Assembly (NCBI RefSeq): GCF_048403405.1
Contig: NZ_CP183131.1
Source: Escherichia coli
GTDB lineage: Bacteria > Pseudomonadota > Gammaproteobacteria > Enterobacterales > Enterobacteriaceae
DNA: 64,000 bases
Direction: 5' to 3' (one strand)
A program made the position numbers and the translations under genes. Within the stretch, counting starts at the first letter, position 1, and each line of letters starts with the position of its first letter. The notes under the pieces were generated by a model, which was given only the letters and a program-made list of their open reading frames with translations, was not told where the DNA came from and did no database searches. Of the stretch, positions 19,878 through 41,492 are shown piece by piece.

Positions 19878-19906
19878 ATCATAAGTTCATTTTATGATGC
19901 TGTAAA
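19878..19906 (-). promoter_or_regulatory. Putative sigma70 promoter TTTACA-N17-TATGAT upstream of the AAA+ ATPase operon
   Basis: Minus strand: -35 at 19901-19906, -10 at 19878-19883, 43 bp before the start codon. Confidence 0.45.
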
Positions 19907-19908
19907 TA

Positions 19909-21326: not shown

Positions 21327-21355
21327 ATCATAGTATCATTATGTGATGCTGTAAA
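21327..21355 (-). promoter_or_regulatory. Putative sigma70 promoter TTTACA-N17-TATGAT
   Basis: Same architecture and near-identical spacer as the 19878-19906 promoter; 28 bp upstream of the 21299 start. Confidence 0.45.
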
Positions 21356-22391: not shown

Positions 22392-22481
22392 AGTGTCACC
22401 TCTTTTTGAATGAAAAATGCCCTTTCACAGTTGCATTTTTTAATGCTGTGATAGGATAAAAGTGTAAGTTGAAAAGGAGAG

Positions 22482-24140: not shown

Positions 24141-24169
24141 TTTACAGATTCATTTTATGATACTGTAAA
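24141..24169 (-). promoter_or_regulatory. Promoter-like palindromic element TTTACAG-N15-CTGTAAA
   Basis: Shares the catcattttatgat spacer with the other recurrent promoters. Confidence 0.35.
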
Positions 24170-24191
24170 CAATAAAAAGACACCTTGCAAG

Positions 24192-24217: not shown

Positions 24218-24766
24218 TTACATCTGCTCGCTTGGATCAAACCCCAAAGCCTTGCACACGTCATCCAGGTCATCGAGCGTGAAGAATCCCAGCGTCAGTT
24301 CCCCGGAGCGCTTCGCGGGGTTATAGCGAACTTTGATAGGCCTACCCGTAGCATCGCTCATCAGGGTCTCCAGGCGCTTAATGTCTGCATCCCTGTCCAC
24401 TTCTTTGCCCTTCGCTATCGCCTCAAATTTATGAACCGGTGTCCTGGTATGCAGGAGATCCCTCAGGAGCTTTTCTCTCTTGCTGAAAGGTAACTTAGCC
24501 ACGGCCCTCACATGCCCCAGGGTGATCTTGCGTGGATTTCTGAGCCAGAGTGTTAGCTCTTCCTCCGATAGCGTACCGGCGCGTTTCAGGTGTGTAACCG
24601 TATAGACCTTCTCAATACCCAGATCCTCTCTGATCTGACTGTTTGAACGCCCCTCTCCGCTTAGGAACGCGACCACATAGGCCTTTTCTGCATCAGTCAT
24701 GCCTGGATGCTGGTGGTAGTAGTCAATGGCTTCTCTTGCATCGAGCAGTAGGGGTAGGTTGTTCAT
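24218..24766 (-). CDS. Putative HTH DNA-binding protein, weakly ParB/KorB-like
   Basis: 182 aa; segment …ITLGHVRAVAKLP… resembles the ParB GHARAL region; low certainty. Confidence 0.4.
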   Translation of the reverse strand: MNNLPLLLDAREAIDYYHQHPGMTDAEKAYVVAFLSGEGRSNSQIREDLGIEKVYTVTHLKRAGTLSEEELTLWLRNPRKITLGHVRAVAKLPFSKREKLLRDLLHTRTPVHKFEAIAKGKEVDRDADIKRLETLMSDATGRPIKVRYNPAKRSGELTLGFFTLDDLDDVCKALGFDPSEQM

Positions 24767-24928: not shown

Positions 24929-25279
24929 ATGTGGGTCATCGAGACAACCGACACCTTTGATGAGTGGTTCGATGCTCTGGATGATACCGATAGAGCAAAC
25001 GTGCTGGCTTCGATGATGGTGCTGCGAGATAGAGGCCCCATGCTGTCGAGGCCATACGCGGATACTGTTAACGGTTCATCCTACAGCAACATGAAAGAGC
25101 TTCGGGTCCAAAGCAAAGGAGATCCTATCAGAGCGTTCTTTGCGTTCGATCCAAAGCGTAAGGGGATTCTTCTCTGCGCCGGTAACAAGACCGGGGACGA
25201 GAAAAGGTTTTATGAAGTAATGATCCCAATTGCAGACCGTGAGTTTGCGGCGCACTTGGATAAATTGAAGAAGGAGTGA
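24929..25279 (+). CDS. higB: Type II toxin, RelE/HigB-like
   Basis: 116 aa; followed 4 bp later by an XRE-HTH antitoxin gene (toxin-first order typical of HigBA). Confidence 0.65.
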   Translation: MWVIETTDTFDEWFDALDDTDRANVLASMMVLRDRGPMLSRPYADTVNGSSYSNMKELRVQSKGDPIRAFFAFDPKRKGILLCAGNKTGDEKRFYEVMIPIADREFAAHLDKLKKE

Positions 25280-25283
25280 CGTT

Positions 25284-25586
25284 ATGGCAAGAACTCTTGA
25301 CCAAATGCTGGCAACAGAAAAGCCTGAGGTTGTTGCCAAAGCACAGAAAGCGGCCACTGAGATGTTACTGAACATCCACTTGGCAGAGCTTCGTGATCGC
25401 ATGAACCTTACCCAGGGGGAAATTGCTGCATCTCTGGGTGTGAGACAGCCGACAGTCTCCGAGATGGAAAAACCTGGACGAGATCTCAAGCTGTCGTCCA
25501 TTAAGCGGTACGTTGAGGCCTCCGGTGGCAAGCTACGCCTCGATGTTGAACTTCCGGACGGCACCCACTACGGCTTTGCCGTTTAA
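25284..25586 (+). CDS. higA: Type II antitoxin, XRE-family HTH (HigA-like)
   Basis: 100 aa; HTH LTQGEIAASLGVRQPTVSEMEK. Confidence 0.65.
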   Translation: MARTLDQMLATEKPEVVAKAQKAATEMLLNIHLAELRDRMNLTQGEIAASLGVRQPTVSEMEKPGRDLKLSSIKRYVEASGGKLRLDVELPDGTHYGFAV

Positions 25587-32747: not shown

Positions 32748-33072
32748 GGCAGAGTGAAGCCATCACCATGCCAAAGGCTTTCGATGGAGCCTCTTTGGCG
32801 AACTTGGTCAACCACGGCATCATGCCGCACAGAGCAGCAACCATAGCGCCAGCCACCCCCAGGGAAGGGAATGCCATCACTTGGGCCAGAATGAAGAAAC
32901 ACTGGGCGTATGCCGCATGGGTCATCGCCTTCTTATCTGCTGCCGTGAACTCCACGGCATCTACGCTTTTGACTTTTTCCATCACATTGTCCTCATGCAA
33001 CATCAGGTTTTCCGAAAAATTTCTCATACACTTCGAGGTCGAAGGCCAGCATGGTCTTTGCCGCCTTTTCAC
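32689..33072 (-). CDS. Hypothetical membrane protein
   Basis: 127-aa ORF, hydrophobic. Confidence 0.35.
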   Translation of the reverse strand: MKRRQRPCWPSTSKCMRNFSENLMLHEDNVMEKVKSVDAVEFTAADKKAMTHAAYAQCFFILAQVMAFPSLGVAGAMVAALCGMMPWLTKFAKEAPSKAFGMVMASLCLAPVYGKLCELVVHAIQGA

Positions 33073-33466
33073 TAAGCTGGTGGAGGCTAAGCATCTGAAC
33101 CTTGTCAGTGCCGGTCACTTGCAGATCCACCGCGAACCACGTCCCACCTTTGGTCACGGCCAGAACTTGCACCGCCCAGGGCTTATCCAGTCGTTCGGGC
33201 GGAGTGATCATGTTCGACACTTTGGCGACCGTCGCGGTTGAACCTACCCAGTGCTTGTCGAACGCAATGACGTTCAACGCTTCAAACGCATCCTTCGCAG
33301 CTTTAAACCGGCTCCGGACAGCATCTTGTTGCTTCCAAGCCATGAACTGGAGAAGGGTCATTCCACCAGCCATAAGGGTGAGAAAACTCAAGCCATTGGC
33401 GGCAGCTACGACCGTCGCTACCAAGGACCCCAACATGACGAAGCGGTTATGTTTAAGCTGGGCCAC
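32993..33466 (-). CDS. Hypothetical membrane protein
   Basis: 157-aa ORF with N-terminal hydrophobic helices. Confidence 0.4.
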   Translation of the reverse strand: MAQLKHNRFVMLGSLVATVVAAANGLSFLTLMAGGMTLLQFMAWKQQDAVRSRFKAAKDAFEALNVIAFDKHWVGSTATVAKVSNMITPPERLDKPWAVQVLAVTKGGTWFAVDLQVTGTDKVQMLSLHQLSEKAAKTMLAFDLEVYEKFFGKPDVA

Positions 33467-33557
33467 TATTCACCTCCTATACCAACCAGCGTACAGGACT
33501 TTTCAAAAATGCAACCCCGCCTAGCTGCCCAATTCGGGCAACCCTGATTCAATCCAG

Positions 33558-33574
33558 AACTTTCACATGTGAAA
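33558..33574. promoter_or_regulatory. Palindromic operator-like site (copy 5 of 8, one arm degenerate)
   Basis: aactttcacatgtgaaa then ctttcc. Confidence 0.45.
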
Positions 33575-34084
33575 CTTTCCGCCACAGGAACAGGAGGTTT
33601 TTACCTGACCAGAACGGATGGATTGATAGCGGTGCCACAGCTTGACCACTTCTTTTTCGCTGAGAAGGTTTGTCTTGATGTAACGGACTCTATCCCCGTC
33701 CGCTGTCTCAACAACGGTTCGGACATAGCCGTACTTGGCAACGGGTGCCTTGTACTTGTGTGACAGAATTACCCGGTAAACCGAGAGCTGGATAATGTCC
33801 GACTCATAGATGTGGTTTACCTGGCGCAGCTTGGTGTCCAAGGGAATGAGAACCCCATTCTTGGTTTGGTACACCTGATCAACCCTGCCGTGCATGGGCA
33901 CCGGCTGTGTGGTTGATATGTCCTGTTCGGACAAAAACAGAGTGGCCGAGCGCAGCTCATAAGGCATGTTCTCTGATTTCCACCACGCCCAGGTGTCTCC
34001 AATGCCGCGTTTGCGCCATTGGTCCACTTTCGCAATGACGAAAGGGGCGATGATCAGGACGAATATCCAGAGAACTGGCTTCAT
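33563..34084 (-). CDS. Hypothetical protein with N-terminal TM anchor
   Basis: 173-aa ORF. Confidence 0.4.
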   Translation of the reverse strand: MKPVLWIFVLIIAPFVIAKVDQWRKRGIGDTWAWWKSENMPYELRSATLFLSEQDISTTQPVPMHGRVDQVYQTKNGVLIPLDTKLRQVNHIYESDIIQLSVYRVILSHKYKAPVAKYGYVRTVVETADGDRVRYIKTNLLSEKEVVKLWHRYQSIRSGQVKTSCSCGGKFHM

Positions 34085-34086
34085 GA

Positions 34087-34608
34087 CTACCTCCGGCCCC
34101 TAAACCACTCTGGATGATTGGATACATCCATGCTCTTAACCTGTGATGAGAAGACCAGTAGCTCTTGGGTCGTCAGGACGGTCTCAGGAGCCCGAGCGAT
34201 GAAAGGTCTCAGCAATTCAGAACCCGCATAGATATTGATGACCATATGCAATCGCTCTGTTGCTCCAGAAACTCTCCGCCAGCTCCGGTAGGTTTCTGTT
34301 GATTTGGCATAGCCAACCAAGGCAGGAGCCAGCGTGTCGGACTCCTTCGTATTCAACTTCCCTTTTGCTGCCTTCGATACGAACTCAGCGATCACCGAAG
34401 CCAGCATGTCGGAGGTAAGGTGAAGCGGCAGCTTTATCGTGTCGAAGTCAGCCTGCTTGATGGTGAACAGGCGGATGTGATCGTTGCGGTAGTCACGCAC
34501 ATAGATGACATGACTCTCAAATGGGTTGGAGTGGTTAAAGGCATCCATACCCCAGCCTGCGGCCTCAAGATGTGCGTTTGATACTGACTTGTCGTAATCA
34601 AATTCCAC
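34087..34608 (-). CDS. Hypothetical protein
   Basis: 173-aa ORF. Confidence 0.4.
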   Translation of the reverse strand: MEFDYDKSVSNAHLEAAGWGMDAFNHSNPFESHVIYVRDYRNDHIRLFTIKQADFDTIKLPLHLTSDMLASVIAEFVSKAAKGKLNTKESDTLAPALVGYAKSTETYRSWRRVSGATERLHMVINIYAGSELLRPFIARAPETVLTTQELLVFSSQVKSMDVSNHPEWFRGRR

Positions 34609-34612
34609 GCTA

Positions 34613-35221
34613 TTACTCTCCGTCTTGTCGTTCAGGAACTTTCACATGTGAAAGTTTTCCGTCGGTCATGATGTCCAGGACGGCTTTGCCCAGTCTCATC
34701 CCTTTATGGTTTTGAACCGGGTCTCCCTTGTAGAAAAGTCCTGGCTCGTTATCGGGATGGAATACCCCGTGAGGAATGTTGTCGTGATCGCCCAGCCACA
34801 TGCGTAGCCTCAGATCCACCAGCCACCCATCATCCAGGACAACCCAGAAATGCGGTGTCACGATGTCCTTGGTCTGTTCGTTTCGCACAAAGCCATACAT
34901 GCAGTCATGAGGTACACCCGCTTCATTGAGTAGGTGGCTTACTGCCCATGTCATACCGTCACATTCCATCTGGCAGTCATCCAAGGTCATAAGGACGGCT
35001 TCCAGTTCCCGGTGCCACTCCGTCATTTGCTTGGCCGCAGGTTTTACCACCAGCTCGTTTTTGTTTTCTGCCAAGATGATGTCTTCCTCGTCAATATTGC
35101 ATTCGTCTATCGCTTCCGAACGGATGGATACCGCTTCATCCCAGTCATCGCTCGATCCGAAAATGCTCCAACCCTCAAGACCGTAATTCACCCATACGAT
35201 GAACCGCTTTATCGTTTTCAT
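34613..35221 (-). CDS. Hypothetical protein
   Basis: 202-aa ORF. Confidence 0.4.
   Translation of the reverse strand: MKTIKRFIVWVNYGLEGWSIFGSSDDWDEAVSIRSEAIDECNIDEEDIILAENKNELVVKPAAKQMTEWHRELEAVLMTLDDCQMECDGMTWAVSHLLNEAGVPHDCMYGFVRNEQTKDIVTPHFWVVLDDGWLVDLRLRMWLGDHDNIPHGVFHPDNEPGLFYKGDPVQNHKGMRLGKAVLDIMTDGKLSHVKVPERQDGE
34637..34656. promoter_or_regulatory. Palindromic operator-like site (copy 6 of 8)
   Basis: aactttcacatgtgaaagtt, 29 bp upstream of the 34608 start. Confidence 0.5.
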
Positions 35222-35416
35222 GTGCGGCCCCCTTTAACCGTGCAACGTTCCCACATACTCACCCCTTCAAACCGTAACCCCACCAAAAAGCCACTTCTTG
35301 ATGATTTCCAATCAGCAGCGGCAGGTTGCCCCTGAACTAACCTCACCGAAAAACCACCTTTAGATTGCTTTCTGGTGCTTATCAAGTTCTCCTGAGTGAT
35401 TAGTCGTTCTGAAAAC

Positions 35417-35444
35417 TTTACTTTTCACAGTATCATTTTATAAT
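35417..35444 (+). promoter_or_regulatory. Putative sigma70 promoter TTTACT-N16-TATAAT upstream of the PAPS-reductase-like gene
   Basis: Contains the recurrent tatcattttataatactgtaaat motif. Confidence 0.4.
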
Positions 35445-35489
35445 ACTGTAAATCATAAAAACAACCCAGTAAAGAAAAAAGAGCGACTT

Positions 35490-36605
35490 ATGTTGAGACG
35501 AGAAAACCAAGGAGATTTGTTCGATGACCAGGTGGTGTTGCCATCACTGGAGTCGGTTCTTACCGGCATATCTTCCAGTCAGCGTTGTGACGATAGAACA
35601 ACGTACTTCTCCGCTCCGGATGTGGACCTGAGTTTGTACGATCACATCATTGTTTGCCTGTCTGGAGGCAAAGACTCGATTGCTGCGTACTTGCGGCTGG
35701 TGGACATGGGTGTTGATAAGTCAAAGGTGGAGTTCTGGCACCATGATGTTGATGGTCAGGAAGGCAGTTCGTTGATGGATTGGGCCTTCATGCGTGATTA
35801 CTGTCGTCAGCTCGGGGAAGAACTGGGTATCCCAATGTACTTCTCGTGGCTTGAGGGCGGCTTTGAGGGCAAAATGCTCAAAGACAATGCCTATAGCCAC
35901 CCCCATCGTGTAGAGACGCCTGAGGGGCTTCTGGTGCTGCCTAGAGACCATAAGCGCTCTAAGCCTGGTACGCGCCTTCGTTTCCCTCAGCAATCGCCAT
36001 CACTCCAAACAAGGTGGTGCTCATCAGCCTTGAAGATCGATGTTGGCCGCAGAGCTCTTAATAACCAGGAGCGCTTCAAGGGGAAGAAGATCCTTTTCAT
36101 CACTGGTGAGCGCCGGGAGGAAAGTGCAAACAGATCCAAGTACAACCAGCTTGAGGCTCATGCCTGTGACAGAAGATATGGGAAGACTGCACGGTTAGTT
36201 GATGCCTGGAGGCCCGTTCTTCATTGGACTGAGGAGGAGGTATGGGAAGTAATCGAGCGTCACCGCATCCTGGCCCCAGTCCCTTATCGCCTTGGCTGGA
36301 GCCGGTCGTCGTGTATGACCTGCATCTACAACTCACAGCGTATCTGGTCCACGATCCGTCACTACTGGCCTGAACGAGCTGGGAAAATTGCTCAGTATGA
36401 ACAAACCTTTGGTGTGACGGTATCAAGAAAAAAAATCGACGTAATAGATTTAGGTTCTGCTGTTGCGCCGATACAGATTAGTGATGTTGAGGCATTGGAG
36501 CAGGTATCCAGAGAAGATTACACGCTCCCGATTTTTGTGCCGGAGGGGCAGAAGTGGGTTCTCCCTGGTGGCGCATTTGGCCGAGAGGCCTGTGGTTCTG
36601 ATTGA
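35490..36605 (+). CDS. PAPS-reductase-family (PP-loop ATP pyrophosphatase-like) protein
   Basis: 371 aa; PP-loop motif CLSGGKDS; C-terminal Cys cluster. Confidence 0.7.
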   Translation: MLRRENQGDLFDDQVVLPSLESVLTGISSSQRCDDRTTYFSAPDVDLSLYDHIIVCLSGGKDSIAAYLRLVDMGVDKSKVEFWHHDVDGQEGSSLMDWAFMRDYCRQLGEELGIPMYFSWLEGGFEGKMLKDNAYSHPHRVETPEGLLVLPRDHKRSKPGTRLRFPQQSPSLQTRWCSSALKIDVGRRALNNQERFKGKKILFITGERREESANRSKYNQLEAHACDRRYGKTARLVDAWRPVLHWTEEEVWEVIERHRILAPVPYRLGWSRSSCMTCIYNSQRIWSTIRHYWPERAGKIAQYEQTFGVTVSRKKIDVIDLGSAVAPIQISDVEALEQVSREDYTLPIFVPEGQKWVLPGGAFGREACGSD

Positions 36606-37057
36606 TTTGTGCAGAGGTGGCAATGTTGGATTTTGTTTTTTTGGTGTTTTTGGGGTTGGGCATATCTACGGTGCTGGTGCGTCGGTCTTCCCGTAAGGGG
36701 ATGGATCTTGAGCTGACATGGCTCCAGTCGTTGAAGGTCGTGCTGGTTCGTGGAGCTGTTGCATTGGGCCTGGGTTTTGGCATTGGCAGGCTTGTATTGA
36801 TGGGGATGCAGTATGGTTTCCTGAGTGAGTCTGTCCTGAGGGAACATGCACTTGTCTCCGTAGCGGTGGTTCTGATCTGTGGGCTTGGTTCGTTCGTTGC
36901 GTTTCAGTGGATCATCGGGAGGATCTCTGGAAGATCGATCAGCGTCGTTTCTGTGATCAAAGCTGTGATGTACGAGTCTGGTTACTTTGTGCTGTCGATG
37001 CTTATCTTGTTGGTGATACTCGTCCTGTTCGGCCTTGCATACGAGACTTTTTTCTAA
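36602..37057 (+). CDS. Integral membrane protein
   Basis: 151 aa, 4 hydrophobic helices; stop/start-coupled to the PAPS-reductase-like gene. Confidence 0.45.
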   Translation: MICAEVAMLDFVFLVFLGLGISTVLVRRSSRKGMDLELTWLQSLKVVLVRGAVALGLGFGIGRLVLMGMQYGFLSESVLREHALVSVAVVLICGLGSFVAFQWIIGRISGRSISVVSVIKAVMYESGYFVLSMLILLVILVLFGLAYETFF

Positions 37058-37214
37058 AAAAACAGTGTTGATTATTTTTTGTTCAGTGATCAAAAGGATA
37101 AATATAAAGATCTTTAGATCTTTGTATAAAGGATTAAAAACGGTTAAAGACAGGTTAGGCGTTCTAAATCACCACTCAACACATTGATATTACTGGTGTT
37201 TTCATATTTATTCC

Positions 37215-37952
37215 GTGCAACAAACCCATAGGTTGCCGTGCAGCGTTCCCATAGGTTGCCGTGCAACGTCCCCACATACCCTTGGATCTTATCCACTGTT
37301 ATCCACACGGAACCCCTCTTTTTTCCACAAAATCCTTACAAAACAGAGCTTTCGTGCAGCGTTCCCACATATCAGATCTGGTGTTCGTGCAGTATTCCCA
37401 CATGTCTAAGGTCATACGTGCAGTCGCCCCATATACAATTTTCTGAACGTGCAACGTACCCACATGTCAATTTTGGTCGTTTTTTGCACCGTGCAGCGTA
37501 CCCACATATGATCGTGCAGCGTTCCCATATACCAAAACCCCGTTTATGCACAGGAAATGTGGATAACTTTTGGCCTCTTTTTGTGTGCGCGTGATCACTT
37601 TATGGACTATTAGAGTCATTTTGACTGCTTTTTTAGGTTTGTCCTGATCTGTCAATCTTTGTTCTGCTTCGTCAATCGTGCAGAGTTCCCATATATCGAG
37701 AGGTTCAGGACCTGCTTTCGTGCAACGTACCCACATATCAAATCTCATAACGTGCAGGTCCCCCACATCCTCACCCTTTAACTATCAATACCTTACGGGA
37801 ACCACTCTACGGGAACCACTGGAGCAGCATGGCACTTATCCTTCGTCGTGGCTTACGCTTGCACGATACTGAGACTCAGCTTGCGACTACCGTGCAGCGA
37901 TCCCATATATAGAGCCCCAGCCCACGCTGCATCTGGGGTCACGTTCGCTCTA
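37215..37952. repeat. Replication-origin iterons: about 14 direct copies of a ~19-bp repeat CGTGCA(G/A)CGTNCCCA(C/T)AT(A/G)
   Basis: Copies start at about 37215, 37237, 37259, 37352, 37385, 37417, 37447, 37490, 37512, 37667, 37699, 37729, 37870, 37934; one more at 40332. Confidence 0.75.
37289..37307 (+). promoter_or_regulatory. Tandem DnaA boxes (TTATCCACT, TTATCCACA) within the iteron region
   Basis: Perfect DnaA-box consensus at 37299-37307; AT-rich stretch with GATC sites at 37060-37200 nearby. Confidence 0.5.
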
Positions 37953-38093
37953 TCCGTGCAGCTCCCCCATATGCGGAGGCATTCCGTTTCCGGTCCTGCC
38001 TGGTGGGCGTACCTTGTGCGCTTTCTTCTGGCATAAAAAAAGGCGCTGACGCGCCTATCTTTCTTTTCCCTGGGGGGTGGGAGATTCTGGTGG

Positions 38094-39194
38094 CTATCTC
38101 CCCTTACGTTGGGGTTCATCAATGATGTCGTGGTCGATCATGCCGTGCTTGATGGCCCGTAGCTCTGTCTGCTGCTTACGCTTGTTGGACGCCATCACCT
38201 GCTTCACGAAGTTCTCATGAGGCCTTATGACGTACCGCACGTCGATGACTCTGCGGCCATCCTTGATCTGGTTCGCGTCGTAGTCGCTTATGACCTCTTG
38301 TTTGATGAGGGCCTCCAGAGCGAGCTTCATGGCTCTGACGTTCTCCGGCATCCGTGGGCTCAATTCACGAGGGCTCTGGGTCAGGAAGCTGATAAGCGAT
38401 GGCGTGTACGGCGAATCTGGTGATGCTTGAGTCCAGTAGTGGCTCATTCGCTTGTAGATGTACCGTGCAAGAGGGGAGCGGATTTGCATTCCGATTTTGT
38501 AGTTGTACTGACGAAACGACAGATTCATGATCGATTCGTTTACCAGCGGGTTGAACTGCACATAGCACCTGGCGTTCCCGCCTTTCTTGCGAAACTCACC
38601 TCTGGTGGTCAGTCCCACCATCGGGAAGAAGCTGGAGCTGATGAAGGCTTCACCGTCATCACTGATACATTCGAGTGTTGCGCCACGACAAACCTGGATT
38701 GCTTCCTTGATTTCGTTCAGGTTGTACCCGTGACCCATCTTCGAGAGCTCTTTCTGGAGTTCGTACAGAGTGAACATGACTCCAGCCTTGCCCTCGATGA
38801 TATGGCCTTTCCCGTTCACTGCGAGCTTGCGTAGAGCATCCTCAAGGATTTCCTCTCGCTGTCCCGCGTAGATCAGCACGGTTCTTCCGTCATCCTTCTC
38901 GATGATGGCTGGCTTCACCTTCACCGTGAAATGCTGGCCTCTGATGGTGCATTGTCGTGTCACTACAGCGTTGGATAAATCTTCATGCTCACGCTTTTGG
39001 TCCCAAATGTACTTCGGCAGCGCATCGTAGATCTCGATGGTGTTGGAGTAGTCGTCTTTCTTGGCCGGAGATTCAATGATCTCAAACAGGCTCATTTGCG
39101 GTGAGTCTTTGATTACGTCGAGTTTCTCCAGGTCTTTGTCTTTGGTTCTCTTGCTCATGATTGTTCCGTCGATACTTTCTAGCTGGTGGTCCAT
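38094..39194 (-). CDS. repA: Iteron-type plasmid replication initiator RepA
   Basis: 366-aa ORF immediately upstream of the iteron array; true start may be the internal Met at 39158. Confidence 0.7.
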   Translation of the reverse strand: MDHQLESIDGTIMSKRTKDKDLEKLDVIKDSPQMSLFEIIESPAKKDDYSNTIEIYDALPKYIWDQKREHEDLSNAVVTRQCTIRGQHFTVKVKPAIIEKDDGRTVLIYAGQREEILEDALRKLAVNGKGHIIEGKAGVMFTLYELQKELSKMGHGYNLNEIKEAIQVCRGATLECISDDGEAFISSSFFPMVGLTTRGEFRKKGGNARCYVQFNPLVNESIMNLSFRQYNYKIGMQIRSPLARYIYKRMSHYWTQASPDSPYTPSLISFLTQSPRELSPRMPENVRAMKLALEALIKQEVISDYDANQIKDGRRVIDVRYVIRPHENFVKQVMASNKRKQQTELRAIKHGMIDHDIIDEPQRKGR

Positions 39195-39466
39195 GCCGCC
39201 AGCATTGTCAATGCTCCCGCTGCTACCGTCGCTGAAAACACTAGCTGGTAGATGCGACGCTTAGCCCCCGCAGTGCCGCTCATAAAACGCAGGGCTGCCG
39301 CTTCATATCGGAAATGAGCGAACTCACCCCGAAGGGTGCTATCTGTCCCCTGTGGCGATTGTGGGCGCTTTGACAGGGCAGGGCGAGGATGGCTGGCGAC
39401 TTTCTTGATCATCGCTTCACATTTCCCCAGTTTCGCCAATTCAGTGGCCGCTACAGATGCTGTCAT
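39179..39466 (-). CDS. Hypothetical small protein
   Basis: 95-aa ORF overlapping the repA 5' end. Confidence 0.3.
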   Translation of the reverse strand: MTASVAATELAKLGKCEAMIKKVASHPRPALSKRPQSPQGTDSTLRGEFAHFRYEAAALRFMSGTAGAKRRIYQLVFSATVAAGALTMLAAWTTS

Positions 39467-39470
39467 GTTG

Positions 39471-40037
39471 TCACACCTCGTCGCTATGTGTCTTGTTTAG
39501 CTGGCGCTCGTACTCGTTTAGCGCCCGGCGAATTTTTGCTAAGGCAGTGGCGCGTTGTCTTAACACGGCATACCTGGTTTCAACTTGCTGGATCAACTCT
39601 TGTGCCCAGACAGGCTCTTTCTTGAAGTGCGACATGCTGTAGGCATGACCGCGACCCTTCTTGATATGTGTCGATAGAACCCTTTTCTTTTGTCCGGGAA
39701 CTTGTTCGACAAATCTGTTGCGATACCACTCTGCAACGAGTGATACGCCTAGAATGCGAACCCGTGTACCGACACGCCCTTGTTCGTCCTCTGACGCTTC
39801 TTCACGCGCTGATTTGTGCGCGTTCCAGTACATGTCCGCTTCCTGCTGCGCCTCGACAGCAAGAACCGCTAAGGCGTGATCCAGTTTGCTCCGTACCTCT
39901 GCAACAAACTCTCGTCCCTCTGCCTCTAGCAGATCCTCTGTTATCTCGGATCGTTCTTCTTCGAGCTTCGGATCTAGCAGATCTAGCCATCGCTCTGTTG
40001 GTAGACTCACCTCAATACCCTCCCAATTCCTATCCAA
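39471..40037 (-). CDS. Hypothetical protein
   Basis: 188-aa ORF, charged/coiled. Confidence 0.4.
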   Translation of the reverse strand: MDRNWEGIEVSLPTERWLDLLDPKLEEERSEITEDLLEAEGREFVAEVRSKLDHALAVLAVEAQQEADMYWNAHKSAREEASEDEQGRVGTRVRILGVSLVAEWYRNRFVEQVPGQKKRVLSTHIKKGRGHAYSMSHFKKEPVWAQELIQQVETRYAVLRQRATALAKIRRALNEYERQLNKTHSDEV

Positions 40038-40260
40038 TTCCTATCCACATAACTATCTATCTGGAATTTAAAGCTGATTATTCCAATACTGGAATCTAGT
40101 TCTGTCACTAGGCTAACCCATCTTTGGAATTTGTCAAATTTCCCTCTATCTATCTGGAATCTTGATGCTCTTATTCTTTCACAGCCTCTTTACATATGAA
40201 TCTATATTTAAAGATTCCAGATATATTGGATATGGCATCAAAGATTCCAAATGCCTCTTT
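40020..40260. repeat. Centromere-like repeat region (parC-like) upstream of parM
   Basis: Multiple copies of (t)ctggaat / attccag in both orientations. Confidence 0.45.
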
Positions 40261-40508
40261 ACCACCGTCTCTCGATGCTGGAGGGCAAGCGGTTCTCGAT
40301 GCGAGGGTAAGGTCTGTTTATCTGAGCCTATCCGTGCAGCGTTCCCATAGGTTCCCTTACTCAACGATCAAAAAGCCACCGAAAAGCAACCTATATGCCC
40401 CTTTTGGGCAATTACACAGGCCATCTGTCCCCGCTTTTAGCCTTATTCTCTATCCAACACGCGGCAAGCAATCGAAAAGCAATCTAAAAGCAATCTTTGG
40501 AGGATTTC

Positions 40509-41492
40509 ATGAGTCAATTTGTTCTGGGTTTGGATATTGGTTACTCCAACCTGAAAATGGCAATGGGGTATAAAGGTGAGGAAGCTCGCACAGTCGTCAT
40601 GCCGGTGGGGGCAGGTCCATTGGAACTGATGCCACAACAGTTAACTGGCGGTGCAGGGACCTGCATTCAGGTTGTGATTGATGGAGAGAAATGGGTTGCA
40701 GGCGTCGAGCCTGACCGATTGCAAGGATGGGAGCGTGAGCTTCACGGCGACTATCCTTCGACCAATCCATACAAGGCTCTTTTCTACGCTGCACTCCTGA
40801 TGTCCGAGCAGAAGGAGATCGATGTGCTGGTGACTGGCCTGCCTGTTAGTCAGTACATGGACGTAGAGCGCAGAGAGGCGTTGAAATCTCGGCTTGAGGG
40901 TGAACACCAGATCACGCCAAAACGATCGGTAGCGGTTAAGTCTGTCGTGGTTGTACCTCAACCTGCCGGTGCTTACATGGATGTTGTAAGTTCAACCAAA
41001 GATGAAGACCTCCTGGAGATTATCCAGGGAGGAAAAACCGTTGTAATTGACCCTGGGTTCTTTTCTGTAGACTGGGTAGCTCTTGAAGAGGGAGAGGTCC
41101 GCTATCACTCATCTGGCACCAGCCTCAAGGCGATGTCGGTGTTGCTACAGGAAACGGACCGGCTAATTCAGGAAGACCACGGCGGTGCCCCTGGCATCGA
41201 AAAGATCGAGAAAGCTATTCGTGCCGGTAAGGCCGAAATCTTCCTCTACGGTGAAAAGGTATCGATCAAAGACTACTTCAAGAAAGCCTCAACCAAAGTC
41301 GCTCAAAACGCCTTGATCCCTATGCGGAAGTCAATGCGTGAGGACGGGATGGATGCTGACGTAGTTCTGCTGGCTGGCGGCGGTGCCGAGGCTTACCAAG
41401 ATGCGGCCAAGGAGCTTTTCCCTAAGAGCAGGATCGTACTGCCCAACGAATCCGTGGCATCCAATGCCAGGGGCTTCTGGTTCTGCGGCTGA
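40509..41492 (+). CDS. parM: Actin-like plasmid segregation ATPase (ParM/StbA family)
   Basis: N-terminal phosphate-1 motif LGLDIGYSNLK; GGAGG near 41190; start at ATG 40509 with ggagg RBS. Confidence 0.75.
   Translation: MSQFVLGLDIGYSNLKMAMGYKGEEARTVVMPVGAGPLELMPQQLTGGAGTCIQVVIDGEKWVAGVEPDRLQGWERELHGDYPSTNPYKALFYAALLMSEQKEIDVLVTGLPVSQYMDVERREALKSRLEGEHQITPKRSVAVKSVVVVPQPAGAYMDVVSSTKDEDLLEIIQGGKTVVIDPGFFSVDWVALEEGEVRYHSSGTSLKAMSVLLQETDRLIQEDHGGAPGIEKIEKAIRAGKAEIFLYGEKVSIKDYFKKASTKVAQNALIPMRKSMREDGMDADVVLLAGGGAEAYQDAAKELFPKSRIVLPNESVASNARGFWFCG

Follow-up and report, generated by a model that had tools for sequence, protein, structure and literature searches.

A predicted PP-loop ATP pyrophosphatase of the PAPS-reductase/DndC branch encoded beside the replication origin of IncC plasmids

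IncC plasmids are major carriers of carbapenemase and multidrug resistance in the Enterobacterales and Vibrio, and the majority of their conserved backbone genes have, to our knowledge, no known function. The stretch of DNA analysed here (64 kb, hereafter the window) is an IncC plasmid backbone and carries beside oriV the two-gene operon annotated as vcrx007-vcrx006 in pVCR94, which raises the question of what a PAPS-reductase-like enzyme does next to a plasmid origin. A full-text literature search (IncC or IncA/C with PAPS reductase; vcrx006/vcrx007) found no mention of the genes. Both are on the + strand and are transcribed toward oriV, and the 3' end of the operon at 37057 lies 179 bp before the iterons. 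An 18-nt pattern located eight of these, and blastn added a ninth, partial one. The features of the locus are as follows.

35240..35257, + strand: lone iteron, on the upstream side of the divergent leftward operon
35359..35371, no strand assigned: conserved 13-mer TTTAGATTGCTTT in the divergent intergenic region
35417..35444, + strand: predicted operon promoter, -35 TTTACT (35417-22), 16-nt spacer, -10 TATAAT (35439-44)
35427..35449, no strand assigned: putative operator, a perfect 7-bp inverted repeat ACAGTAT-N9-ATACTGT across the spacer and the -10
35490..36605, + strand: vcrx007, a 371-aa PP-loop protein of the PAPS-reductase superfamily
36623..37057, + strand: vcrx006, a 144-aa protein with four transmembrane (TM) segments and no family match
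37236..37909, + strand: oriV iteron array, eight copies (37261-37909) and the partial copy (37236-37251)
37289-37307, within the oriV array: DnaA-box-like nonamers TTATCCACT/TTATCCACA
38094..39194, - strand: repA (vcrx003), the IncC replication initiator

The genes vcrx007 and vcrx006 are genuine and belong to the core IncC backbone under purifying selection. The operon stretch was present in 1060 plasmid records (1028 when at least 80% coverage is required), versus 1052 for repA. When the IncC, Photorhabdus and pAsa4b copies were compared, dN/dS was 0.07 for vcrx007 and 0.16-0.24 for vcrx006. The position beside repA is kept in all three, and pAsa4b retains the gene pair though its replicon differs. 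The lone iteron and the oriV array bracket the operon; the former is kept in Photorhabdus and absent from pAsa4b. Upstream, IncC, Photorhabdus and pAsa4b share the 13-mer TTTAGATTGCTTT without any change, and its reverse complement recurs at 40476-40488, upstream of a ParM/StbA gene. Downstream, an AT-rich stretch with GATC sites directly follows the operon and precedes the DnaA-box-like nonamers; no intrinsic terminator was predicted between the operon and oriV, and an Rfam scan of 33000-41000 matched no known RNA family. The oriT precedes mobI and lies approximately 3.5-5 kb from the operon; since PMC5587640 did not establish where IncA/C plasmids are nicked or in which direction they transfer, no place in the leading region is claimed for the operon.

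The predicted promoter is sigma-70-like and near consensus (10 of 12 matches in a consensus scan); Photorhabdus and the diverged pAsa4b copy both keep its -10 and flanks. An earlier note on this DNA had credited the locus with a promoter of its own and had begun it at 35417, exactly the first nucleotide of the -35 hexamer found here. The inverted repeat of the putative operator occurs once in the window, with 0 occurrences expected by chance, and is conserved in pAsa4b. Related copies with 2-3 mismatches are located at 21330, 22427 and 24144 (7 matches versus 1.3 expected). This arrangement is consistent with a repressor that would bind over the vcrx007 promoter. A 182-aa regulator with a ParB_C domain, encoded at 24218..24766, is one candidate for control of the operon. 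In pVCR94, vcrx007 reached RPKM values of only 0-9 under all three conditions, and the operon was nearly silent in culture while repA was expressed (PMC4207636 Dataset S1). The same data showed no induction of vcrx007 that would point to AcaCD, which rules out this regulator, and inspection ruled out a LexA box, because the palindrome reads ACAG...CTGT and not CTGT-N8-ACAG.

The product of the second gene has four hydrophobic segments, each 19 aa or longer, and had no match among Pfam, NCBIfam, PADLOC and PHROG-type profiles. The earlier description of vcrx006 as a coupled membrane protein stands as far as the single operon and the four TM segments are concerned, but not for the coupling: the start annotated in RefSeq and pVCR94 (ATG 36623, preceded by GAGGTGG) lies 17 nt past the vcrx007 stop, and the 4-nt overlap with the vcrx007 TGA stop that an alternative TTG start at 36602 would create is unproven. 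The vcrx006 family comprises about 60 clusters, all in the IncA/C-like lineage; the gene is missing beside enzyme homologues outside this lineage, and pC1579 carries it without the enzyme. Judged by this distribution, vcrx006 is an accessory limited to the IncA/C-like lineage and separable from the enzyme. A TM protein lies downstream of the enzyme in only 3 of 33 other loci, which dismisses an 'enzyme plus TM effector' pair as the general architecture, and a part for vcrx006 in surface or entry exclusion was ruled out because sfx is vcrx085.

The identity of vcrx007 as a PAPS-reductase-family protein with an SGGKDS PP-loop, also claimed by the note, was borne out. The protein passed the Pfam PAPS_reduct profile (PF01507) with 34.2 bits, above the cut-off of 22.5, in an alignment limited to aa 166-278 (profile positions 70-172). 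Its PP-loop LSGGKDS (aa 57-63, with SGGKDS at aa 58-63) has the SGGxDS motif at the N-terminus of a Rossmann-like fold that characterizes the superfamily of PP-loop ATP pyrophosphatases and adenine nucleotide alpha-hydrolases. Among 90 family representatives, SGGKDS, C177, C275, C278 and seven basic residues were invariant, giving the family its hallmark of a PP-loop with three invariant cysteines. Conservation of C226 and of the tail C368 is limited to the clade near IncC, whose C-terminus reads E-A-C-G-S-D (E-x-C-G); a tail cysteine is present in 14 of the 90. We thus predict vcrx007 to be a PP-loop ATP pyrophosphatase of the PAPS-reductase/DndC branch. The family numbers several hundred to more than 1000 protein clusters and is confined to mobile elements (plasmids, ICEs and phages). 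Only 8 phage records matched vcrx007 at E<1e-8, which suggests that the IncC clade is carried mainly by plasmids and ICEs.

Profile scores place vcrx007 outside CysH/APS reductase, DndC, SspD and BrxP, since it missed every curated cut-off. The subfamily assignment that the note had proposed as a check excluded a conserved metabolic subfamily, the scores being 19.2 bits versus 165.1 for TIGR00434, 28.4 versus 235.3 for TIGR02055 and 26.1 versus 154 for NF002537. The closest solved fold is nevertheless that of APS reductase; the assimilatory [4Fe-4S] enzyme in PDB 2goy is 16% identical, is no ATP pyrophosphatase and lacks the C-terminal domain (about 100 aa) and the N-terminal peptide that vcrx007 adds. 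A weak sequence match to PDB 21fy ('PptA'; E 0.006) covered the CxxC region only.

The top PADLOC matches of vcrx007 were the DNA-phosphorothioation enzymes BrxP, SspD and DndC, all of them partial. The BrxP match (9e-14) paired aa 169-297, which include both cysteine motifs, with positions 211-332 of 779; BrxP itself, from BREX type 4, spans about 780 aa, contains a DUF4007 (SspB-like) domain and depends on BrxC (PMC12914056), features that vcrx007 does not share. SspD (3e-9, 34.8 bits) needs SspB and SspC, the genes for which vcrx007 lacks. BrxP and SspD both produce phosphorothioate DNA, and all four established phosphorothioation systems require a PAPS-domain protein and an NTPase (PMC12914056). 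DndC resembles vcrx007 in its SGGKDS PP-loop, in three conserved cysteines that include a CxxC and in a stretch of similarity running from RWC to GERREES, but the PADLOC match was partial (6e-9) and against TIGR03183 the 371-aa protein scored 36.8 bits for a cut-off of 290.4, with only aa 169-256 aligned. DndC has been described as an ATP-pyrophosphatase of the PP-loop type whose 4Fe-4S cluster is held by three cysteines (PMC10853773), a pattern that C177, C275 and C278 fit, so that a [4Fe-4S] cluster is predicted for vcrx007. However, dndD, dndE and dndA are neither adjacent nor elsewhere in the window, no gene for a DndD/SspC/BrxC-type NTPase adjoins vcrx007, no brx genes (brxC, brxZ, brxL) lie next to it, and tblastn revealed no homologues of DndB, TusA or the large DndC-like proteins within the 64 kb; profile scans of the neighbouring genes gave no family of this kind either. 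The suggestion that vcrx007 belongs, like DndC, to a known modification system fails on these missing partners.

The best profile match overall was phrog_424, a phage 'PAPS reductase' family (E 5.1e-34, 119 bits), which aligned over aa 51-314 to positions 161-375 of 460 and left its N-terminal 160 or so positions unmatched by vcrx007. Its members are orphan, non-essential genes of mobile elements beside replication genes, as in phage 186, whose orf84 (about 27% identity to vcrx007) is translationally coupled to replication gene A and annotated as not essential. A counter-defence role has experimental support for another PAPS-superfamily domain on a mobile element, that of a vibriophage PAPS-domain-Dam fusion, which upon transfer with an adjacent gene led to escape from the host Dnd system (Piel et al., bioRxiv 10.1101/2021.05.05.442762). 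This domain is, however, short (about 170 aa) and fused to the methylase, the effect is only partly attributable to it, and the fusion is related to vcrx007 at superfamily level only and was not among the 8 phage matches by tblastn. Aca-regulated phage anti-defence operons also include PAPS reductases (bioRxiv 10.64898/2026.07.27.740549).

Relatives of vcrx007 keep company that points to DNA. DndB is their neighbour at 5 of the 36 genomic loci and, among 16 loci from phages or viruses, at 3. A same-strand protein of 560-1150 aa is encoded downstream in 9 of the 36, immediately so (79-253 bp) in 7. Three of these large partners were scanned: two were DndC-like (PADLOC 8e-18 and 3e-21) and the third had no match. 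The partner family has its own PP-loop and a CxxC motif, and vcrx007 behaves toward it like a distant paralogue (hhalign probability 95%, E 2e-8). TusA occurs as a domain fused to the large partner in one locus and as a stand-alone gene directly upstream of the relative in two others (L014 and L015), and some relatives sit in DndB-TusA-small-large modules with two PP-loop enzymes, as at the Alteromonas antoniana locus L029. Fusions of relatives join them to Mom, a C5 DNA methylase, an ART-PolyVal domain, a Mu portal protein or an inorganic pyrophosphatase, the last of which is consistent with a reaction that releases pyrophosphate. On other plasmids, homologues lie in one-directional arrays with ArdA, DUF4942 and ArdK, or with an N6 methylase, KlcB or ssb; on viral contigs they adjoin DnaB, TrfA, ligases, a C5 methylase or Tad5. 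Most neighbours are, however, heterogeneous proteins without a Pfam match. The location by oriV in the original description applies to the IncC locus and not to the family as a whole, even if closeness to replication genes recurs among relatives. The idea that extra cysteines make up for an absent TusA or large partner was discarded, as the tail cysteine was uncorrelated with the partner; C226 showed a trend in a comparison uncontrolled for phylogeny.

The reading that we favor, tentatively and at somewhat less than even confidence, is that vcrx007 is an Fe-S ATP-pyrophosphatase that acts on DNA, probably via sulfur chemistry, for plasmid establishment or anti-defence. In this reading the Fe-S cluster, the identity of the substrate, the use of sulfur chemistry, repression of the promoter and the part played in establishment or anti-defence are all inferred. 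The three invariant cysteines would probably hold a [4Fe-4S] cluster. The enzyme would first adenylate an oxygen of its nucleic-acid target, which is most likely DNA, with release of pyrophosphate, and the adenylated oxygen would then be swapped, most likely for sulfur from a host cysteine desulfurase. As a solitary enzyme behind a presumably repressed promoter on IncC, vcrx007 may help the plasmid to become established or to escape host defences, for instance through a mark on its DNA or through interference with phosphorothioate systems (such as Dnd, Ssp or BREX type 4). The core of the earlier proposal, that vcrx007 acts on DNA or nucleotides and not in sulfur metabolism, gains genuine if indirect backing from the missed metabolic cut-offs, the canonical PP-loop, the BrxP, SspD and DndC matches, and the links of relatives to DndB, TusA, a DndC-like protein, Mom, a C5 methylase and pyrophosphatase, and the context suggests establishment or anti-defence over defence. 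Against this, TnSeq of pVCR94 entering V. cholerae O395, which has type I restriction-modification and CRISPR, identified only vcrx089-093 as evasion genes (PMC7498323). A bolder version, which we consider doubtful, is that vcrx007 is self-sufficient or hijacks the host (IscS only, or host Dnd/Ssp partners) and writes a phosphorothioate or thio-base mark on the incoming plasmid as it replicates at the adjacent origin. If true, it would make the broad-host-range IncC resistance plasmids immune to restriction, both phosphorothioate-dependent and of other kinds, provide the first PAPS-domain DNA modifier that works without a dedicated NTPase, and stand for the whole plasmid, ICE and phage family, including the DndB-TusA-small-large modules.

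Other substrates and roles were weighed against a DNA-acting enzyme. The target could be RNA: vcrx007 would then modify tRNA or rRNA, either as a [4Fe-4S]-dependent thiolase or as another kind of PP-loop enzyme (compare TtuA, NcsA, TilS and MnmA), and so tune host translation for the plasmid, a reading that we regard as unlikely. We find it quite unlikely that the two genes form an anti-phage module in which vcrx007 detects infection or produces a signal and vcrx006 disrupts the membrane as an abortive-infection effector: the partners are separable, as the lone membrane gene of pC1579 and the rarity of downstream TM proteins in other loci illustrate, the membrane family is far smaller than that of the enzyme (about 60 versus more than 1000 clusters), and the pair matches no PADLOC system.

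The position of the operon, reading toward oriV from between the lone iteron and the array with no predicted terminator, could also indicate that it aids IncC replication or copy control, in trans or via transcription in cis into oriV, under the control of RepA at the flanking iterons. The repA adjacency in IncC, Photorhabdus and pAsa4b, the coupling of phage 186 orf84 to gene A and the DnaB and TrfA neighbours in viral contigs would fit such an accessory, yet most homologues are not beside a replicon, pAsa4b has kept the pair although its replicon differs and the lone iteron is missing, orf84 is dispensable by annotation and the operon is near-silent while repA is expressed, and we rate this very unlikely. 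Hardly any credence is left for a metabolic PAPS or APS reductase serving as an auxiliary sulfate-assimilation gene. The Pfam cut-off was passed, APS reductase provides the closest fold and the E-x-C-G end of the IncC clade resembles the ECGLH tail of such enzymes, but vcrx007 scored only 19-28 bits against CysH/APS-reductase cut-offs of 154-235, its PP-loop is of the canonical ATP-pyrophosphatase type, few representatives have the tail cysteine, no cys genes lie nearby and the distribution is that of mobile elements only.

Anti-defence roles of the orphan 'PAPS reductase' genes of mobile elements have so far been only suspected, and pVCR94 in E. coli and V. cholerae offers a tractable model for such genes on plasmids, ICEs and phages. 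Should vcrx007 prove dispensable, a recurrent misannotation as sulfur metabolism would still be retired. The vcrx007-vcrx006 pair is as universal as repA on IncC plasmids; if the pair modifies DNA or disables restriction, sulfur-based or otherwise, it would be a determinant of host range and a possible target against plasmid spread.

The DNA bore out the earlier note's description of a PAPS-reductase-family PP-loop gene with its own promoter-like site and a membrane gene, beside the replication origin, as seen from the ORFs, the TTTACT-16-TATAAT site, the iterons and repA. Window coordinates are as follows:

35240-35257: lone iteron copy, on the opposite side of the operon from oriV, upstream of a leftward operon diverging from vcrx007
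35417-35444: promoter-like site TTTACT-16-TATAAT, upstream of vcrx007
35427-35449: perfect 7-bp inverted repeat ACAGTAT-N9-ATACTGT, overlapping the promoter-like site
35490..36605, + strand: vcrx007, 371-aa ORF with LSGGKDS at aa 57-63
ATG 36623 (alternative TTG 36602) to 37057, + strand: vcrx006, 144 aa, four hydrophobic segments
between 37236 and 37909: oriV iteron copies, downstream of the operon
37289-37307: two DnaA-box-like nonamers, downstream of the operon
38094..39194, - strand: repA, beyond the iterons

The two genes, called coupled in the earlier note, lie on the same strand in one operon, as also predicted in pVCR94 (PMC4207636 Dataset S1), but their overlap is not proven, as the annotated start leaves a 17-nt gap. 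An AT-rich stretch with GATC sites follows the operon and precedes the iterons and repA. The operon stretch matches IncC plasmids at 100% identity and occurs in 1060 plasmid records (versus 1052 for repA), and both genes are under purifying selection (dN/dS 0.07 for vcrx007, 0.16-0.24 for vcrx006). RNA-seq of pVCR94 in E. coli gave RPKM values for vcrx007/vcrx006 of 9/106 in the wild type, 0/7 without AcaCD and 0/2 when AcaCD was overexpressed (PMC4207636 Dataset S1). Thus, the operon is close to silent and outside the transfer regulon.

The inverted repeat occurs once in the 64-kb window. Promoter, palindrome and the 13-mer TTTAGATTGCTTT are all conserved even in the diverged pAsa4b operon copy, whereas the lone iteron is kept in Photorhabdus and gone from pAsa4b along with the IncC replicon (pAsa4b has a different one). 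The 13-mer, at 35359-35371 upstream of vcrx007, is invariant in IncC, Photorhabdus and pAsa4b; its reverse complement, at 40476-40488, shortly precedes the ParM/StbA gene (40497..41492). An iteron-like 16-mer at 40332-40347, in the oriT/mobI upstream region, is also outside the oriV array; with oriV, the outlying copies bracket vcrx007-006 and repA-vcrx002-mobI. Intergenic elements of 21-29 bp resembling the vcrx007 promoter/palindrome (19887-19907, 21330-21352, 22427-22449 and 24144-24178) follow the rough consensus ACAGtaTCATTTTaTgATaCTGTAAA, with 7 matches versus 1.3 expected; a shared operator/promoter set is one possibility, Bet/Exo repair repeats (Roy 2020) another. Adjoining a RelE/XRE toxin-antitoxin pair (24929-25586), a gene at 24218..24766 (- strand) encodes a 182-aa 'transcriptional regulator' with a ParB C-terminal dimerisation domain (Pfam 7e-8), which might be a KorB-like candidate global repressor and putative binder of the palindromic sites. 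In the divergent operon, a 173-aa ORF (33563..34084, - strand) has weak Cas4-like (PD-(D/E)xK nuclease) matches (PADLOC Cas4d 9e-7; TIGR00372 under cut-off) and the rest (34613..35221, 34087..34608) matched no family; the pAsa4b version includes rdgC.

In profile searches vcrx007 scored above the Pfam PAPS_reduct cut-off and failed every curated subfamily model tested: cysH (19 bits versus a cut-off of 165), APS reductase (28 versus 235) and DndC (37 versus 290). The profile check proposed in the earlier note therefore assigned the enzyme to no metabolic subfamily; the likeness to DndC held as a partial match but missed the cut-off. The highest-ranking profile is that of the phage family phrog_424 (5e-34), and the best defence-library matches, all partial, are BrxP (9e-14), SspD and DndC; these three are the enzymes known for sulfur insertion into the DNA backbone (PMC12914056). 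vcrx007 matches more than 1000 clusters at 90% identity, the best 120 of which share 59-95% identity with it, and clustering at 50% identity gives 331 clusters with E<1e-30. Across 90 family representatives the PP-loop, seven basic residues and the cysteines C177 (RWCSS), C275 and C278 (SSCxxC) never vary; two further cysteines, C226 and C-terminal C368, are kept only near the IncC clade. DndC itself has been described as an ATP pyrophosphatase of the PP-loop type whose three cysteines carry a 4Fe-4S cluster (PMC10853773). Taken together, sequence and fold evidence place vcrx007 among the ATP pyrophosphatases of the PAPS-reductase/DndC branch rather than the metabolic reductases.

The N-terminal peptide (aa 1-47; 35490-35630) is modeled with low confidence. 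Its invariant motif, [YF]-D-D-x-h-h-h-P-x-L (D12, D13, P18), is limited to clade members with at least about 60% identity, is mostly missing in remoter ones and might serve in docking. A Y-x-L-G-x4-C-x2-C ... W-x2-I-x3-F-P segment is common to vcrx007 and PDB 21fy chain C (270 aa, deposited as 'PptA'; E 0.006).

Relatives of vcrx007 carry these fused domains, the polyvalent and C5 methylase fusions coming from proteins P0216, P0227, P0243, P0130 and P0142:

inorganic pyrophosphatase + PAPS
pyrophosphatase (InPase) + Mom + PAPS, 1677-aa polyvalent protein
Mu portal + PAPS, 1841-aa polyvalent protein
ART-PolyVal + PAPS, polyvalent protein
C5 DNA methylase + PAPS

A 2017 survey of polyvalent proteins contains no PAPS or PP-loop domain (PMC5512222). 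Among the 36 genomic loci clustered by neighbours, nine have a same-strand protein of 560-1150 aa after the relative, immediately so (79-253 bp) in seven. This large partner family, with its own PP-loop and a CxxC motif, is distantly paralogous to the vcrx007 family (hhalign probability 95%); two of three scanned members match DndC (PADLOC 8e-18, 3e-21), the third has no match, and one locus has a TusA domain fused to the partner. Two loci carry a stand-alone TusA gene directly upstream of the relative, and DndB adjoins relatives in 5/36 genomic and 3/16 phage/viral loci. A recurrent ICE/phage module comprises DndB, TusA (free or fused), a small vcrx007-family protein and a large DndC-like protein, with its two PP-loop enzymes arranged in tandem; in the phage module, two methylases are added. 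It occurs in these loci (locus coordinates):

L014, 6201-12713
L029, 5402-11608
L005, 10001-18534
L025, L027 and L028
L049 (phage KB12-38)

DndB, TusA and the large partner are all missing from the 64-kb window. On other plasmids, the relative sits in one-directional arrays, for example:

Pectobacterium: ArdA, DUF4942, ArdK
Acinetobacter: N6 methylase, H-NS, thermonuclease
elsewhere: KlcB, DUF5131, N6/N4 methylase
also: ssb

Viral contigs place it beside, among others, DnaB (three times), TrfA, ligases, C5 methylases and Tad5.

We tentatively favor, at somewhat under even confidence, an enzyme that acts on DNA, probably through sulfur chemistry, as an establishment or anti-defence function. 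The recurrent DndB, TusA and DndC-like neighbours, the methylase/Mom fusions and the similarity to BrxP, SspD and DndC point to DNA and sulfur. Probably holding an Fe-S cluster on its three cysteines, the enzyme would adenylate an oxygen on the nucleic-acid substrate and then swap that oxygen for sulfur from the host desulfurase pathway. An establishment or anti-defence role is suggested by the plasmid and phage contexts, the repressed-looking promoter with near-silence in established cells, and two precedents: a vibriophage PAPS-Dam fusion that, moved with an adjacent gene of unknown function, gives escape from Dnd (bioRxiv 10.1101/2021.05.05.442762), and PAPS reductases in Aca-controlled phage operons (bioRxiv 10.64898/2026.07.27.740549). 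Against it, the phosphorothioation systems established so far all need an NTPase partner (PMC12914056) and none of that type is present with vcrx007; and when pVCR94 entry into V. cholerae O395 was screened by TnSeq for evasion genes, vcrx089-093 alone were flagged (PMC7498323). Leading-region status is not claimed, as it would depend on the direction of IncC transfer (PMC5587640). The narrower proposal of a stand-alone or host-hijacking DNA sulfur-modifying enzyme protecting incoming plasmid DNA appears unlikely.

An RNA-modifying thiolase is a distinctly unlikely alternative. Ranked below it, as improbable, is a defence pair of enzyme and transmembrane effector. The vcrx006 homologue still adjoins the enzyme in pAsa4b (50% identity). 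vcrx006 matched no family of Pfam, NCBIfam, PADLOC or PHROGs, and its own family has only 60 clusters, all on IncA/C-like plasmids. Vibrio pC1579 carries the membrane gene alone beside vcrx002-mobI-oriT, 1100 records have the membrane protein versus 1483 with the enzyme, hundreds of other enzyme-homologue plasmids lack it, and outside the IncA/C-like lineage a TM protein of any kind lies downstream in only 3/33 loci. The coupling is therefore real but lineage-specific and separable. More improbable again is an accessory of the replicon that works in trans or, through transcription into oriV, in cis; the location beside oriV and phage 186 speak for it and the near-silence against it. In phage 186, orf84 (L048, 3962-4966), a PAPS-reductase-like early gene homologous to vcrx007, is annotated as non-essential and is translationally coupled to replication gene A, whose translation needs translation through to the orf84 end; it gives a second example of a gene of this kind directly adjoining a replication function. 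A metabolic reductase is very improbable on the cysH and APS reductase scores. Over 1000 records annotate the gene as 'PAPS reductase family protein'.

The DNA-directed sulfur enzyme that we favor extends a general idea already in the literature, that mobile-element PAPS reductase genes serve DNA modification or counter-defence. Our literature search found no mention of vcrx006 or vcrx007 and no description of the DndB-TusA-small-large modules into which the relatives assemble. Besides these modules, the added value lies in the family signature, now defined as a PP-loop plus three cysteines, and in vcrx007 itself, an unstudied case of a PAPS reductase-type gene on a mobile element that belongs to the core of a plasmid family which matters clinically and offers a tractable system.
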